Source: a virus (lineage: Duplodnaviria > Heunggongvirae > Uroviricota > Caudoviricetes). Taken from it: 64,000 bases of DNA. The first letter of the stretch is position 1, and the number at the start of each line of letters is the position of its first letter. Made by a program: the position numbers and the translations under genes. The stretch lies in the IMG/VR virus record IMGVR_UViG_3300027806_000037, positions 1 through 64,000 of that record. One strand, written 5' to 3'. The notes under the pieces were generated by a model. It had not been told where the DNA came from and searched no databases. It saw only the letters and a list, made by a program, of their open reading frames with translations. Shown piece after piece: positions 14,393 to 44,075 of this stretch.

Positions 14393-14486
14393 CTAGTATA
14401 TATAAGTAAGTATAATCTAACCACTTAAAAATAAAGGACTTGAATAATAAAATTATTAAGATTTGTGAAGAAAAGTTTATATATTT
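14393..14486 (+). repeat. 94-bp perfect direct repeat, copy A (covers promoter region and first 15 codons of the tyrosine recombinase)
   Basis: ctagtatatataagtaagtataatctaaccacttaaaaataaaggacttgaataataaaattattaagatttgtgaagaaaagtttatatattt, identical at 43982..44075. Confidence 0.8.
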
Positions 14487-15240
14487 AAACTATTCACCAA
14501 GAACAAAAGATAATTATCTTTCACATATAAAAAATTTCTTAAATCACATTGGTAGTAAACAAGTAATACATTGTAATGCTCAAGATTTTCAATCCTATTT
14601 AGATAATTATAAATTCACTTCAACAGCACAACAAAACCAAATCATTAACGCAATAAGATTTCTCTACAAATTTGGTCTTAATAAAAAATATGATAAAATA
14701 TCGTTTAAAAGACCTAAATCTGAGAAGAAACTACCAAAAGTAATTGATTCAAATTCAATCATTGATAAATTAAATAAGATTGATAATCTCAAACACAAAG
14801 CAATTCTCACCTTAACTTTTTCAGTTGGTCTACGAGTCTCAGAAATAATTAATCTTAAAATAGAGGATATTGATTCCAAGCGAATGTTAATCCACATTAA
14901 GAACGCAAAAGGAAGAAAAGATAGAGTTGTTCCATTATCTCAAAATGTATTAAGACTATTAAGAACTTATTATAAAAATTATATCCCAAAGGAATATCTC
15001 TTCAATGGACAAAACAGTACTAAATATTCAATAGGTAGTTGTCAGAAAATATACAAAAAATATATTGAATCTGATGGACATATACACACACTTAGACACA
15101 GTTTTGCAACATCCTTATTAGAAAATGGAACAGATTTAAGAATTATTCAAAAAATTCTTGGTCATTCAAATGTTAAAACCACAGAAATATACACACACGT
15201 TTCAAATCAAATTTTGAACAAAATTAATTTGCCAGTTTGA
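14440..15240 (+). CDS. tyrosine site-specific recombinase/integrase (XerC/D-like), apparent TTG start
   Basis: Catalytic set R (LRVSEI), K (HIKNAKGRKDR), HxxR (HTLRHSFAT), H...Y (LGHSNVKTTEIYTHV). No in-frame ATG near the N-terminus; the frame opens after a stop at about 14413. Confidence 0.8.
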   Translation: MNNKIIKICEEKFIYLNYSPRTKDNYLSHIKNFLNHIGSKQVIHCNAQDFQSYLDNYKFTSTAQQNQIINAIRFLYKFGLNKKYDKISFKRPKSEKKLPKVIDSNSIIDKLNKIDNLKHKAILTLTFSVGLRVSEIINLKIEDIDSKRMLIHIKNAKGRKDRVVPLSQNVLRLLRTYYKNYIPKEYLFNGQNSTKYSIGSCQKIYKKYIESDGHIHTLRHSFATSLLENGTDLRIIQKILGHSNVKTTEIYTHVSNQILNKINLPV

Positions 15241-15256
15241 AAAGTTTTAGTTATCT

Positions 15257-15556
15257 TTGTCAAAAATAACAAAAATGAAAAAAGAAGTTTTTGAAATTAT
15301 CATCTGGAATGATACATTTGGAAAAGTGGTTGATGAAAGATTTGTTGATGAAACACAATTTTCGATTTTTTTGAAAGCGATTAAGGGTTGCTTGGATACA
15401 ACACAAGATTTTAGTTATTTTAATGGAAAAAACTTTTTAATCCACATTCCTTTTGCAGTTTTGAAAAATAGCGTTATCTTTACCAAAGAAAATGAAATTG
15501 GTGTAAGTGAAATCATTAAATCAAAAGCTGAAGCTCTAACAACTAAAACAAAATAA
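15257..15556 (+). CDS. hypothetical protein
   Basis: 99-aa ORF. Confidence 0.45.
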   Translation: MSKITKMKKEVFEIIIWNDTFGKVVDERFVDETQFSIFLKAIKGCLDTTQDFSYFNGKNFLIHIPFAVLKNSVIFTKENEIGVSEIIKSKAEALTTKTK

Positions 15557-15560
15557 TAAA

Positions 15561-15710
15561 ATGGGAAAACTTTTCAAAATCATTCTTGGTGTTATTTTGG
15601 TATACATTGGCGGAAAAATGGTTTACAACAATGTAAAAGGTAAAAAAGATGAAGAATTTAATTTTAATGATTTTAAAGACTTGAAAGCAATTAAAGATAT
15701 TGAATTTTAA
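15561..15710 (+). CDS. small membrane protein (49 aa, not in track)
   Basis: MGKLFKIILGVILVYIGGK hydrophobic N-terminus. Confidence 0.3.
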   Translation: MGKLFKIILGVILVYIGGKMVYNNVKGKKDEEFNFNDFKDLKAIKDIEF

Positions 15711-15714
15711 AAAA

Positions 15715-15957
15715 ATGATAGAAAAAATTTTAGAGATATATGATGATGCTAGCTTTATGAAAGCTGACGGATTTGATAATGCAATAATCGGTATTGATGA
15801 GGTTGATATGCGATTAATATATTCGGTATCAAAATGTATTGACATTCTGAAAAAAGATGGTATGAATTATGAAGAAGCAAGAGAGTTTTTTGATTTTAAT
15901 GTGAGCGGTTCTTATGTTGGTGAAAAAACACCAATATGGTGTTATGATGATTTTTAA
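15715..15957 (+). CDS. hypothetical protein
   Basis: ATG (MIEKILEIY) inside track ORF 15700..15957. Confidence 0.45.
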   Translation: MIEKILEIYDDASFMKADGFDNAIIGIDEVDMRLIYSVSKCIDILKKDGMNYEEAREFFDFNVSGSYVGEKTPIWCYDDF

Positions 15958-16018
15958 TTTCTTGGTTTTTTAAACCAAGTGGTGGAGCGACCTGCAAGCG
16001 TTTGGTCCCAAATATAAA

Positions 16019-16050
16019 TGGTGATAGAAATATCACCATTTTATTTTTTT
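16019..16050 (+). terminator. rho-independent terminator
   Basis: GGTGATA-GAAA-TATCACC hairpin followed by TTTTATTTTTTT. Confidence 0.6.
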
Positions 16051-16080
16051 GTTATATTTATATATAAAACACTTCAAAAA

Positions 16081-16398
16081 ATGGCAAAATTCATTCTTAC
16101 CGAAAAACAAATGGCGGAAGTTCTTCAGCATATTGAGAAAACAAAAAAACAAGTTAATGAAGATAAGGACGGTTCTTATATGGCAAAACAACAATTATTT
16201 ACAATTGCAACATTAGCATATAAAATGTGGGAGCAATTGGGTGATGATGAACAACTTGATGATTGGATGGAATCAAAGATAGCACAAGCTGAACAATCCG
16301 TTGTTGCTGTTGTTAAAGCATATATGTATGATGAGGTTGAAGATAAAATGAAGGGAATGGATAAGTTGGACCATAATGATTTAATTATTGGGAATTGA
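16081..16398 (+). CDS. hypothetical protein
   Basis: ATG (MAKFILTEKQ) inside track ORF 16018..16398; the upstream part of the track ORF is the terminator. Confidence 0.5.
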   Translation: MAKFILTEKQMAEVLQHIEKTKKQVNEDKDGSYMAKQQLFTIATLAYKMWEQLGDDEQLDDWMESKIAQAEQSVVAVVKAYMYDEVEDKMKGMDKLDHNDLIIGN

Positions 16399-16438
16399 CC
16401 TTTTGACTTTTTCTTTTTATCTTTATGGTGTTAAACCA

Positions 16439-16654
16439 ATGGAAAAAAGAAAACTAAAAATAGAATTAAACGAATATTGTTATAATTGCGCTGATGGCTG
16501 TTGTACTCATTATGGTACAATAACCAAAGTTAATGGTCAAGAATTGGAATTGCATAATGATGATACAGCAACAATACTTAAACAAGTATTGAAACATTTG
16601 GGTTATGAAGTCGAAATAACAACTAATGTAGCAGATGATTATGGGAATGTTTGA
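16439..16654 (+). CDS. hypothetical Cys-containing protein
   Basis: ATG (MEKRKLKIEL); CYNCADGCCTH. Confidence 0.45.
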   Translation: MEKRKLKIELNEYCYNCADGCCTHYGTITKVNGQELELHNDDTATILKQVLKHLGYEVEITTNVADDYGNV

Positions 16655-42565: not shown

Positions 42566-42584
42566 CTCATAAAACTAATAAATA

Positions 42585-42890
42585 ATGCTTGATAAACTCA
42601 AAAATTTGGTTAAGGAATTTGAGAAAGTTCAGTCCAAATATAGTGATTTTGGAGCGTATGATTCTGAACCTGATTGGGTGTTTCAGCGAGTAATTCGTAA
42701 AGCGTTTGAGAAAGGAGAAGTTGATATTCCTACCGATGGATACGAATGGGAATTATACACAACATCAATGGATTGTGAAGAAGCCGCTAAAGAACTTCAC
42801 GATAAGGCAACTGAAGTTGCTAATTTTGTGGTTCAAGTAAGAGACGACGAAAATGTTCATAAATTTATTGACGAATATTGTTGGAGGTAA
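42585..42890 (+). CDS. hypothetical protein
   Basis: 101-aa ORF. Confidence 0.45.
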   Translation: MLDKLKNLVKEFEKVQSKYSDFGAYDSEPDWVFQRVIRKAFEKGEVDIPTDGYEWELYTTSMDCEEAAKELHDKATEVANFVVQVRDDENVHKFIDEYCWR

Positions 42891-42933
42891 TAGAATTAGT
42901 TGTATATTTGCATTAACTAAAAACAAAATAAGA

Positions 42934-43302
42934 ATGTCAACAAAGAAGAACCAAAACTTTTCTATTCAAGGAGCAAATTTTTTCTTGAATGTACATACAC
43001 CATTTAGTATCATTAATGATACACTTAAAGGTACTATGCTTAGTCAAATTGTATTTTATCTCAATGGTGATGGAATAGTAAATTATGATGTTGACCATTT
43101 GGACCATTTTAATCTCATCTATCAGGATAAACCGATTACAATTCTTAACTTTAGGGAAATTTGCAAACTTCATGAAACACTTGGTCTTTATCAGAATGAT
43201 GAAGAAACCCAAGTTAATATGATTCTTAATAATACTGAAATTGAGAAACTCATTAAAAAATATCCGATTAAGGATGTTTTAGTCGGTATGAATAATAAAT
43301 AG
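42934..43302 (+). CDS. hypothetical protein
   Basis: ATG (MSTKKNQNFS) after the promoter. Confidence 0.45.
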   Translation: MSTKKNQNFSIQGANFFLNVHTPFSIINDTLKGTMLSQIVFYLNGDGIVNYDVDHLDHFNLIYQDKPITILNFREICKLHETLGLYQNDEETQVNMILNNTEIEKLIKKYPIKDVLVGMNNK

Positions 43303-43322
43303 TTTGTATATTTGCAATAGAA

Positions 43323-43410
43323 ATAACGGTTGGTTGTATATGCTGTGCGACCATTACGTTTCAAATTATACGCAGCATTAACACGCATAGCATATACAAC
43401 TTGTTATGCA
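43323..43410. repeat. PE-family palindromic element (second cluster)
   Basis: aaataacggttggttgtatatgctgtgcg ... cgcatagcatatacaacttgttatgcac. Confidence 0.55.
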
Positions 43411-43424
43411 CAGTACGGTAAAAT

Positions 43425-43694
43425 ATGGAAGAGATTAAATTAGAAATTGGGAAACATTACAAAACAAAAGATGGTAGAATTATTTTTATTAAAGATGGAT
43501 TACCACCAATAAATAATCAAAAAGATGGATGGAATGGAATTTATTTTGGTGAATTTGTGGATGGAAGTGATAAAATAATTCAAAGATTTTTATGGAATGG
43601 TAAACATTGGGATTATATTTCACAATTCTCATCTTTTGGTTATCGTGAGTTAAACACACCATCGAAAGACCTTGTTGAAGAAGTACAAATGTAG
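43425..43694 (+). CDS. hypothetical protein (PE-bracketed)
   Basis: 89-aa ORF. Confidence 0.45.
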   Translation: MEEIKLEIGKHYKTKDGRIIFIKDGLPPINNQKDGWNGIYFGEFVDGSDKIIQRFLWNGKHWDYISQFSSFGYRELNTPSKDLVEEVQM

Positions 43695-43701
43695 TATTGT
43701 G

Positions 43702-43760
43702 CATAACGGACAAGTGTATACCGCGTGGCTTTGCATGCGGTATACACGTAGATGTGCAAC
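43702..43760. repeat. PE-family palindromic element
   Basis: gcataacggacaagtgtataccgcgtggctttgcatgcggtatacacgtagatgtgc. Confidence 0.5.
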
Positions 43761-43970
43761 GTTCTCTTCACTCTTAAAGCATTAGGCATGATAAAGACTA
43801 AGTACAGGGCAACGGTTCAAAAAGGCCAAGGCGATAAGTTCTTTGAATGGGAAGTTGTGGTCGAGGCATGGAACATTGGTGAGGCGGCAACGATGGTCCA
43901 CAACCAAGTAAAGGACTTCGACGGATGGACCGTTGCCATCGAACAAGATGATGATGCCGTTCTTTCTTGA
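43752..43970 (+). CDS. hypothetical protein (PE-bracketed, GC-enriched about 48%)
   Basis: 72-aa ORF immediately upstream of direct-repeat copy B. Confidence 0.45.
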   Translation: MCNVLFTLKALGMIKTKYRATVQKGQGDKFFEWEVVVEAWNIGEAATMVHNQVKDFDGWTVAIEQDDDAVLS

Positions 43971-43981
43971 ATGTTGCACAT

Positions 43982-44075
43982 CTAGTATATATAAGTAAGT
44001 ATAATCTAACCACTTAAAAATAAAGGACTTGAATAATAAAATTATTAAGATTTGTGAAGAAAAGTTTATATATTT
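43982..44075 (+). repeat. 94-bp perfect direct repeat, copy B
   Basis: identical to 14393..14486. Confidence 0.8.

Follow-up and report, generated by a model that had tools for sequence, protein, structure and literature searches.

A probable integron-like gene-cassette platform beside an Xer-like recombinase gene in a large phage

Introduction

The virus record IMGVR_UViG_3300027806_000037 of IMG/VR (Duplodnaviria; Heunggongvirae; Uroviricota; Caudoviricetes) contains, in the 64,000 nucleotides analysed here (positions 1 to 64,000, hereafter the window), a gene for an Xer-like tyrosine recombinase and an exact 94-bp direct repeat, one copy of which (copy A) spans the start of this gene, while the other (copy B) lies 29.6 kb downstream. 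We consider it likely that these are parts of an integron-like gene-cassette platform carried by a large phage, that is, an integron analogue and not an integron, and the host of the phage is probably a member of the Bacteroidota. Integrons are commonly viewed as devices of bacteria, with a single integrase family as their defining feature, and searches of full texts outside subscription journals gave no account of such a platform in phages.

In the platform that we propose, the recombinase gene (14440-15240, plus strand) sits directly downstream of an attI-like primary site, and upstream of this site stand mobile cassettes, which are small open reading frame (ORF) modules with their own 10-bp inverted repeat, separated from one another by attC-like hairpins. 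The recombinase would excise and insert these cassettes, possibly by acting on folded single strands, with the crossover in or next to an invariant AAC/GTT triplet. Copy A (14393-14486, plus strand) would be the resident attI-like site, together with the recombinase leader and the first 15 codons, and copy B (43982-44075, plus strand) would be an orphan attI-like site at the downstream end of a second array, of two cassettes. The duplicate exposes the attachment site of the platform and hints at how new sites of cassette acquisition might be seeded in a genome.

The repeat and its boundaries

The 94-mer CTAGTATATATAAG...GTTTATATATTT occurs twice in the window, in both cases on the plus strand and with 0 mismatches between the copies, as had been claimed in a sequence-only reading of this DNA, and no repeat of this length is expected by chance (100 dinucleotide shuffles). 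It comprises 47 nt upstream of the TTG start codon at 14440, together with 15 codons and 2 further nt of the recombinase gene. The same reading had described a truncated recombinase fragment at copy B and this is indeed what is found there, as a frame on the plus strand (44029-44109) in which the 15 shared codons are followed by 11 unrelated codons and a stop. Beyond copy B, nucleotide and protein searches of the window gave no further remnant of the recombinase, and a third or inverted copy of the site in the window was represented by chance-level matches only (e.g., 21537, minus strand). The boundaries of the repeat are sharp, since the flanks of the two copies are not significantly similar (right, p ~0.08-0.13; left, p ~0.02). 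The peptide FIGTYSHTRNY (then a stop), which follows copy B, was set against LNYSPRTKDNY as a possible extension of the homology and was dropped, the similarity not being significant. The repeat itself is unstructured (folding z +1.2).

An artefact of assembly, the case in which the sequence-only reading saw itself as refuted, might be suspected from several contigs that end at or inside the repeat (L010, L013, L122 and L133; L-numbers denote related contigs or loci). This explanation is, however, excluded, because independent assemblies from different samples and pipelines cross both junctions of both copies. Specifically, copy A is spanned with both flanks in L001, L003, L004 and L005 and copy B in L006-L009, L011 and L012, which are 99.8-100% identical to the window and come from several lake metagenomes in ENA, JGI and Logan assemblies. 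Record names of the form k141_ suggest, as far as names go, an assembly word of 141, which is longer than the 94-bp repeat. Since independent contigs span both copies, the repeat is real and stable in natural populations.

Megablast with both repeat regions found no relatives of the window in INPHARED, and a 50-mer of the repeat had no exact match in IMG/VR, nor had a 33-mer in the JGI metagenome collection. Look-ups of exact protein sequences and scans guided by protein led to relatives instead, and 80 related loci were fetched from IMG/VR.

The junction upstream of the recombinase gene

Copy A starts exactly at the point where a 6.5-kb, hairpin-bounded cassette array meets the recombinase gene. 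The sequence to the left of both copies is the 3' inverted repeat of the last cassette, with the left edges ...TATACATAA^C before copy A and ...GTTGCACAT^C before copy B (a caret marks the junction), such that the shared sequence opens at the C, and the predicted crossover falls at this left edge in both copies. The attI-like core of the window reads TAAC^TAGTATATATAAGTAA (14389-14408, plus strand), with the junction between 14392 and 14393 or one base to the right, and the primary core within it is TAAC^TAGTATATATA at 14389-14403.

The same junction, nnnnATAAC^TATTATATATA, or more fully nnnn(A/C)TAAC^TAT(T/A)ATATAT, is conserved in 69 distinct related loci with recombinases that are 55-80% identical, and in nearly all of them it lies ~35-55 nt upstream of the recombinase start. 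Conservation begins at TAAC, where the information content is 1.9-2.0 bits, and extends into the ATATAT core (1.3-1.6 bits), while the sequence upstream of the junction is unrelated between loci. This break is seen at its clearest in loci that share a backbone. From the junction onward L054 and L057 are 100% identical over 2651 nt and L052 and L053 99.84% identical over 10,853 nt, with the same pattern of identity breaking at the junction in L055, L061/L062, L064/L065 and L026/L070, whereas before the junction these pairs fall to 26-39% identity, which is the random level. Identical backbones with unrelated upstream sequence therefore mean that it is not the recombinase gene that hops, but that different cassettes stand at one fixed point. 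In integrons the array starts at attI beside the integrase gene, and this is also the arrangement found here.

An attI-like site overlapping the 5' end of its own recombinase gene had been proposed for the repeat, and the left-edge junction beside the recombinase gene bears this out, both in the 69 loci and in the shared backbones. The extension of the site into the coding region is not supported, as the part conserved across relatives amounts to ~15 nt at the junction. In the related loci no conserved end motif was found 3' of the recombinase stop codon.

Additional cores occur in some relatives. Two loci (L022, near 17461, and L024, near 4999; minus strand) have an inverted second core, CATAACTATATTATA, 5-7.5 kb downstream of the recombinase gene, with the cassette start GTTATGTACA next to it; in such an arrangement the segment that contains the recombinase gene could be inverted, or would have inverted ends. 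A further locus (L073) has a second core in direct orientation 9.1 kb downstream.

Hairpin elements

The cassettes are bounded by hairpin elements (PEs) of a common design. After CATAAC come 3-5 bases, mostly GGTT, that stay unpaired as a one-sided bulge, next a stem of 10-25 bp with its loop, and at the end TT-GTTATG. Their stems vary in sequence from element to element with the pairing kept, and neighbours share only boxes of 6-9 nt. Ten of the 14 elements in the window fold at z <= -2 (range -2.1 to -6.3) when compared with shuffles, and elements with a stem of >=12 bp are found in the window only at 7.9-14.1 kb and 43.3 kb, beside the two copies of the repeat.

Cassette array A (7922-14392, plus strand) has at least 13 of these elements separating small plus-strand ORF modules, up to the attI-like junction. 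All are read on the plus strand. The outermost (7922-8035; TAAC...GTTA) carries a promoter-like motif, TTTG-N-TAnnTTTG, at 7998-8029 and is AT-rich and not significant alone (z -0.8), and it is followed by a short degenerate element with the conserved loop AATCGTTTTAATG and no significant fold (8345-8391). Further inward are elements at 8677-8765 (z -6.0), 9843-9921 (z -2.2), 10203-10327 (z -3.2), 10553-10638 (CCTAAC...GTTAGC; z -2.1), 12005-12057 (GC-rich, ahead of a GC-rich cassette ORF; z -6.3), 12401-12524 (z -1.9), 12980-13027 (again with the loop AATCGTTTTAATG; z -4.1), 13396-13522 (z -2.8) and 13756-13883 (z -3.1). The last of the array, at 14052-14140 (z -3.9), has a promoter-like motif at 14081-14112; such a motif is present in 2 of ~15 elements. 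In array B the elements are at 43324-43406 (z -3.2) and 43698-43754 (z -5.0), the latter with a 3' box GATG in place of GTTATG.

Across 74 non-redundant loci the elements track the recombinase gene closely, with 0.72 per kb upstream vs 0.022 per kb downstream (~33-fold), or 249 vs 9 when plus-strand elements alone are counted, and they are most numerous near the gene (105 in the first kb upstream, 87 in the second and declining beyond). Their polarity is uniform in these loci, with 4-5 nt unpaired after TAAC and 1-2 nt before GTTA, which hints that the putative sites may be strand-selective. In integrons it is the folded bottom strand of attC that recombines, with resolution by replication. 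More distant relatives of the recombinase in bacterial contigs (31-50% identical, mostly Bacteroidota), which served as a negative control, lack the junction motif and have 3 elements in 374 kb upstream, 2 of which are in one contig of a metagenome-assembled genome that does carry the junction motif. With respect to the known features of attC sites, the elements have imperfect inverted repeats, the AAC/GTT triplets, R and L boxes, an unpaired spacer and a variable loop.

An Rfam scan assigned no family to the hairpins and reported two tRNAs only. Hairpin elements of the IS200/IS605 or REP/RAYT type were set aside because the hairpins track a tyrosine recombinase and no HUH transposase family appeared among the Pfam-scanned ORFs and the Pfam marks of the contigs, where no search was aimed at it. 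It was also observed that "empty" mini-hairpins, GTTATAAAATCGTTTTAATGTTTTATAAC, recur beside the attI-like site in four loci (L020, L053, L041 and L018).

Cassettes

Each ORF module between hairpins has its own perfect inverted repeat of 10-11 bp, which extends the boxes in the form GTTATGnnnn...nnnnCATAAC. Examples are GTTATGCGGG...CCCGCATAAC, GTTAGGCGCA...TGCGCCTAAC and GTTATGTATA...TATACATAAC. The first of these terminal inverted repeats (10 bp, perfect) bounds a GC-rich module on the plus strand (12058-12404; 55% GC; ORF 12101-12403), while the last belongs to the junction-proximal cassette (14056-14392, plus strand), which consists of a hairpin interior, GTTATGTATA, a 68-aa ORF (14175-14381) and TATACATAAC.

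This complementarity is a property of the cassette and not of the hairpin. For 205 non-redundant cassettes from the window and the 80 loci, complementarity between the six-base stretches that lie just past TAAC/GTTA comes to 4.52 of 6 positions, with 83 cassettes perfect, whereas the two flanks of a single hairpin match at 2.31 of 6, as random pairs do. The start of a cassette in integrons likewise complements the inverse core of its own attC, where the crossover is at G^TT. The complementarity of the cassette ends places the exchange point in or beside the invariant AAC/GTT.

All of the ORFs in the array lie upstream of the recombinase gene and are co-directional with it. Pfam recognised none of 19 cassette ORFs at a family cut-off. 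The composition of the cassettes can differ strongly from that of the window (31% GC), reaching 55% in one cassette of array A and 46% in the ORF beside copy B, and these GC-rich cassettes (12058-12405, 43750-43981 and L011 1-670) imply, as judged from composition, exchange among phages, or among hosts, whose base composition differs widely.

As in integrons, each cassette moves as a separate unit. The window segment 14049-14394 recurs in L126 (97.7% identity) and 14045-14394 in L131 (94.6%), in both cases in other gene contexts, and the homology of this 68-aa cassette stops at the TAAC junctions, with another hairpin next to it there instead of the attI-like site. Similarly, the 89-aa cassette of array B (43324-43707) recurs in L135. 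Within the population of this phage, L005 has a different cassette before the last hairpin of array A.

Two further features of the cassettes were seen. A gene for a Lar restriction-alleviation protein (Pfam Lar_restr_allev) is present at 2628-2882 of L126, in an array beside the same 68-aa cassette, which hints at anti-defence functions on cassettes. Many cassettes (e.g., window 43680-43701, L047, L035 and L055) end in a conserved non-coding tail, ...AATCGAAGCAC...GTAGCATTGnnnnATAAC, in which the TAG is often the stop codon of the cassette ORF.

The recombinase

The recombinase is a protein of 266 aa with a SAM-like N-terminal domain and a catalytic domain (Pfam Phage_int_SAM_4, 1.4e-10; Phage_integrase, 1.9e-37), in which the motifs GLRVSE, HTLRHSFAT and LGH..Y are visible. 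It satisfies a simple definition of an Xer-type enzyme, that is, a SAM-like domain with R..K..HxxR..H..Y within ~260-300 aa and no arm-binding domain. In NCBIfam and the PDB it comes closest to archaeal XerA, XerC/D and integron integrases, although none of these reaches its curated cut-off (for the NCBIfam integron integrase profile the score is 161 against a cut-off of 265), and archaeal XerA is its best solved relative. An insertion in the catalytic domain that is specific to IntI is stated to be essential for integron function (PMC8138268). When aligned with VchIntIA (PDB 2a3v) the recombinase matches in two parts, and between them its residues 174-209 lie opposite residues 177-260 of IntI4, leaving 35 aa in the IntI-specific region where VchIntIA has 83. 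On this alignment, in which 35 residues replace the 83 of IntI4, the recombinase is Xer-like, without the IntI-specific domain, and does not belong to the integron integrases.

Its 120 best matches among database proteins share 76-98% identity with it and nearly all have a length of 266-267 aa, and they are encoded on contigs of up to 566 kb, one of which is labelled as an uncultured Caudovirales phage. The closest cultured relatives are proteins annotated as integrases in Cellulophaga and Polaribacter phages (36-41% identity). The gene itself is 25.5% GC, and in its 14-15 kb stretch the GC skew is ~0 vs +0.2 to +0.3 around it.

Copy B and orphan sites

Cassette array B (43324-43981, plus strand) consists of two cassettes, one with an 89-aa ORF (43425-43694) and one with a 72-aa ORF (43752-43970; 46% GC). 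The ORF module adjoining copy B (43751-43982, plus strand) has the terminal inverted repeat GATGTGCAAC...GTTGCACATC, with a matching 2-nt deletion at both ends relative to GTTATG/CATAAC. Small ORFs bracketed by hairpins and directly preceding both copies, with a GC-enriched ORF in the second cluster, had been described from the letters of the sequence, and hairpin mapping and GC content agree with that description. The further proposal that cassettes were captured at both copies survives in part, in that arrays abut both; it is not supported for copy B itself, where the adjoining cassette is constant in all variants seen.

Array B varies among contigs with a 99.8-100% identical backbone, which represent the population of this phage. 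In L011 extra GC-rich cassettes, joined at CCTAAC^GG, replace the 89-aa cassette. In L124, which lacks the 94-bp repeat at this place, CATC^GG comes directly after the 72-aa cassette, and beyond it stand a hairpin and a module related to the 69-aa module of L011; the two versions of this module are 92.5% identical over exactly GTTAGG to CCTAAC. L122 has a deletion of 229 bp in the array. The variation affects one position further upstream of the cassette adjacent to copy B, or else the repeat is missing.

The 93-nt body of copy B, TAGTA...ATTT, is bracketed by CATC, with the copy at 44076-44079 (plus strand, read from the sequence) directly repeating that at 43979-43982; from base composition we estimate the chance of such a flanking pair at ~0.7%. 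The neighbouring cassette is the source of this CATC, which is an uncommon form of CATAAC. With these flanks, and with the CATC^GG join left uninterrupted in L124, the unit has the appearance of an insertion at a cassette end with a short duplication.

Orphan copies of the site are also present elsewhere, and several break at nearly the same place. The orphan in L114, a viral contig of 430 kb, comprises an attI-like site and the 5' end of the recombinase gene and has exactly the same end point, ...GTTTATATATTT^, with AGGTAAC on one side and AGGTCAC on the other; those in L105, L108 and L153 stop 3 nt later, after TTTAAA; and the orphan in L149 is 92% identical over 99 nt to the full gene L144 on the same 26.5-kb contig. 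The breakpoint is shared within 3 nt by five independent orphans. It falls in a quasi-palindrome, GTTTATATATTTAAAC, within codons 12-17 of the recombinase gene (14475-14490, plus strand), where AAAC^TATT resembles the junction TAAC^TATT and several orphan copies break, and we propose this as a putative pseudo-site. By comparison with these orphans of other genomes, the end of the repeat in codon 16 is a product of the way in which copy B was generated.

Copy B may have arisen through the recombinase acting on this pseudo-site in its own 5' coding sequence (GTTTATATATTT^AAAC, similar to TAAC^TATT). By one route a circle of ~97 nt with a hybrid site would have been excised and re-inserted at the cassette end CATC^GG, and by another the platform would have been duplicated and the rest of the second recombinase gene then deleted. 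Any particular origin of copy B is put forward tentatively, and we would sooner bet against it than for it.

Other rearranged forms were noted. Internally deleted recombinase pseudogenes occur in L095, L096, L101 and L117 (viral contigs of 97-309 kb) and in L146; they keep the attI-like site, ~40 (L095-L117) or ~68 (L146) of the 5' codons, and ~17 (L095-L117) or ~70 (L146) codons at the 3' end, and by analogy they resemble non-autonomous derivatives of a mobile element. The 940-bp contig L123 (JGI 3300007534, Ga0102690_1500567) joins window 43358-44075 to 14393-14708 through the repeat, as may be expected of a circle or tandem duplication between the copies, or else of a chimera made in assembly. 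It was not taken to prove that the copies recombine, because a short, low-coverage contig can become chimeric through a 94-bp repeat. A degenerate hairpin to the right of copy B, which folds no better than shuffles (z -0.75), is kept as a weak possibility.

Alternative explanations

The layout of a recombinase gene beside one of two direct repeats is that of a classical integrated element, and the copies could be attL and attR of a 29.6-kb element (14393-43981) integrated by the recombinase at its left end. The contig L123 would fit this, in that its sequence runs from the left flank of copy B through the repeat into the recombinase gene, as that of an excised circle would, but it is short and could be a low-coverage chimera. 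The sequence-only reading had itself doubted this explanation, with good reason as it turns out, since there is no step in GC or skew at either boundary and the promoter-repeat families D2-D8 occur both inside and outside the interval, across 44.0 kb. Moreover, both left flanks are cassette ends and not backbone, the right edge is a breakpoint common to orphans in unrelated genomes that have no paired full copy nearby, and the contigs on record that carry the 68-aa ORF include no empty-site contig, in which array A would lead straight into the sequence to the right of copy B. We regard an att-bounded element as very improbable. The same holds, if anything more strongly, for an ordinary lysogeny integrase with TAAC^TATTATATATA as its attP core and accessory genes accumulating beside it, which we can hardly credit. 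An attP beside int is the usual layout, and the Cellulophaga and Polaribacter phage relatives (36-41%) are annotated as integrases. However, in a collection of one genome for each of 185,579 species, the relatives of >55% identity were confined to contigs that are short or that show no chromosomal context, and no prophage copies were found. The core is missing from the more distant relatives on contigs of bacterial genomes, the platform is carried by viral contigs as long as 430 kb, and this explanation does not account for cassettes that end exactly at the core and have their own inverted repeats.

Two other explanations are unlikely, in our view, though less remote. One is that the hairpins are promoter/terminator elements like the PeSL elements of T4-type phages, that ORFs are shuffled by homologous recombination, and that the recombinase is unrelated to this (e.g., a dimer resolvase), with the second copy a by-product of illegitimate recombination. 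Small ORFs in a plastic region between stem-loops are consistent with it, as are the promoter-like motifs in two elements, and such shuffling is documented in T4-type phages (PMC2839356, PMC4122927). Yet neighbouring hairpins offer little homology to recombine on, as they share boxes of 6-9 nt only and differ in their stems, the promoter motif is confined to 2 of ~15 elements, and the exchange points are fixed at TAAC^ and ^GTTA; nor would cassette-specific ends, a 33-fold enrichment, a single polarity and a conserved junction be expected from homologous recombination. The other is that copy B is the decayed remnant of a complete second recombinase gene with its own array, left by random deletion. 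Array B does look like a small second platform, and there are relatives with internal deletions (L095/L096/L101/L117 and L146) and truncations (L115 and L118). Random decay is nevertheless hard to reconcile with 100% identity over 94 bp that is lost abruptly on both sides, with a window that holds no other remnant of the gene, with the same breakpoint within 3 nt in five independent orphans, and with flanks of CATC at copy B and of AGGTAAC/AGGTCAC at the L114 orphan. If the deletion was site-specific, this explanation overlaps with the second of the two routes proposed above for copy B.

The cassette platform, which we prefer to all of these, has several points standing against it. The joins are tied to the recombinase by sequence comparison and not by biochemistry or reads, and the enzyme is without the domain that integron integrases need for attC hairpins. 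The census of hairpins picked them by their pairing and counted some on both strands. Hairpin interiors and ORF modules reassort on both sides of the junctions, which is not the behaviour of classical integrons. As for activity of copy B, all variants that bear the repeat have one and the same cassette next to it, and the sequence to the right of copy B has no significant hairpin. With a crossover at a single point, AA^C, copy B would be expected to end on the right in ...TTTAAA^CGG, where the actual sequence is ...TTT-CATC-GG; the flanks CATC...CATC need a staggered or other event, and neither proposed route accounts for the CATC duplication by a single-point crossover.

Significance

On balance we lean towards a broader proposal, namely that an integron analogue, independent of IntI and of independent origin, is run by a clade of Xer-like recombinases whose genes lie almost exclusively on viral contigs (some >400 kb), and that the platform can seed secondary sites, such as copy B, via the pseudo-site in its own gene. 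If this is correct, large and probably virulent phages of Bacteroidota trade small accessory genes, including high-GC and anti-restriction genes, and there would be a route of gene flow between phages that differ strongly in GC content. It would also mean that cassette capture via folded DNA sites arose, or was kept, outside IntI, and it would offer a concrete mechanism for the small unknown ORFs that fill the plastic regions of large phages. The sites are short and defined and the enzyme has 266 aa, such that the proposal is testable and the system a possible tool.

Other features of the window

Nearly all of the long ORFs in the window are on the plus strand. The motif TTTG-N17-23-TAnnTTTG, which we take to be the Bacteroidota type of promoter, occurs 26 times on the plus strand and 4 times on the minus strand of the whole window. 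At 26346-26465 two 24-nt units, TAGCGTCCATAACGCCTAATACAA and TAGACGCTATACAGCTTAATACAA, alternate head to tail ~5 times in an iteron-like array that could be a replication origin or a binding array for a regulator. Two tRNA genes (31870-31941 and 35720-35793; Rfam 59.7 and 77.9 bits) are located in the middle of a region of small ORFs. A 75-nt promoter region is duplicated exactly (45679-45753 and 46726-46800), and there are paralogous gene blocks of 82-95% identity (33933-34494 vs 38416-38911; 54900-55147 vs 55319-55578). A gene resembling class-I aminoacyl-tRNA synthetases (5908-7911) and an RNA ligase gene (17202-18182), identified from the Pfam marks of identical contigs, fit a large phage with many auxiliary genes.

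Comparison with known systems

In class 1 and class 2 integrons, partial or second copies of attI that are proficient in recombination are found in or at the end of arrays (PMC12901181). Copy B is like these delta-attI-type copies in being a partial primary site at the end of an array, but it includes the recombinase leader and 15 codons and is 29.6 kb away, at a separate array. CALINs, which are clusters of attC sites lacking an integrase, have been described in virulent phages, including a Polaribacter (Bacteroidota) phage, and some of their sites are IntI1 substrates (PMC9892861). The present arrays share with them attC-like sites that bracket ORFs in phage genomes, whereas CALINs have 2-3 predicted sites and neither recombinase nor primary site, and the arrays described here extend to ~17 hairpins and abut a recombinase gene at a conserved junction.

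The PeSL elements of T4-type phages consist of conserved promoter and terminator sequences and exchange is driven by homology, without a dedicated recombinase (PMC2839356, PMC4122927). In both cases stem-loops bracket small ORFs in plastic regions and the content differs between near-identical genomes. Unlike in PeSL elements, the stems of the platform are not conserved, its exchange points are fixed and a recombinase is linked to it, and so it falls outside that class. A further comparison is with the pdif gene modules of Acinetobacter plasmids. Their boundaries are Xer-type sites whose orientation alternates, much like the alternation of CATAAC with GTTATG in the present arrays. In the pdif case, however, host enzymes act on double-stranded XerC/XerD sites of 28 bp, and there are neither hairpins nor a linked recombinase gene.

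The closest comparison is with integrons themselves, from which the platform differs in several respects. Its recombinase is without the IntI insertion and under every NCBIfam cut-off; its ORFs point toward the recombinase gene, whereas those of integrons point away from a divergent integrase gene; some of its hairpins carry a promoter-like motif, whereas integron cassettes are promoterless and served by a promoter in the platform; hairpin interiors and ORF modules reassort on both sides; and it is carried by large phage genomes, with no close chromosomal copies found. The likenesses are as follows. A tyrosine recombinase of the Xer/IntI branch stands beside a primary site at which the array begins, and this site is unstructured. 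The hairpins have the features of attC sites, namely an invariant AAC...GTT, paired boxes, an asymmetric unpaired spacer and a variable terminal stem-loop, and some of their boxes fit RYYYAAC/GTTRRRY exactly (GCCTAAC/GTTAGGC). Finally, the start of a cassette complements its own 3' box, and the cassettes are short, mostly single ORFs of unknown function and very different GC content, which recur in other arrays.

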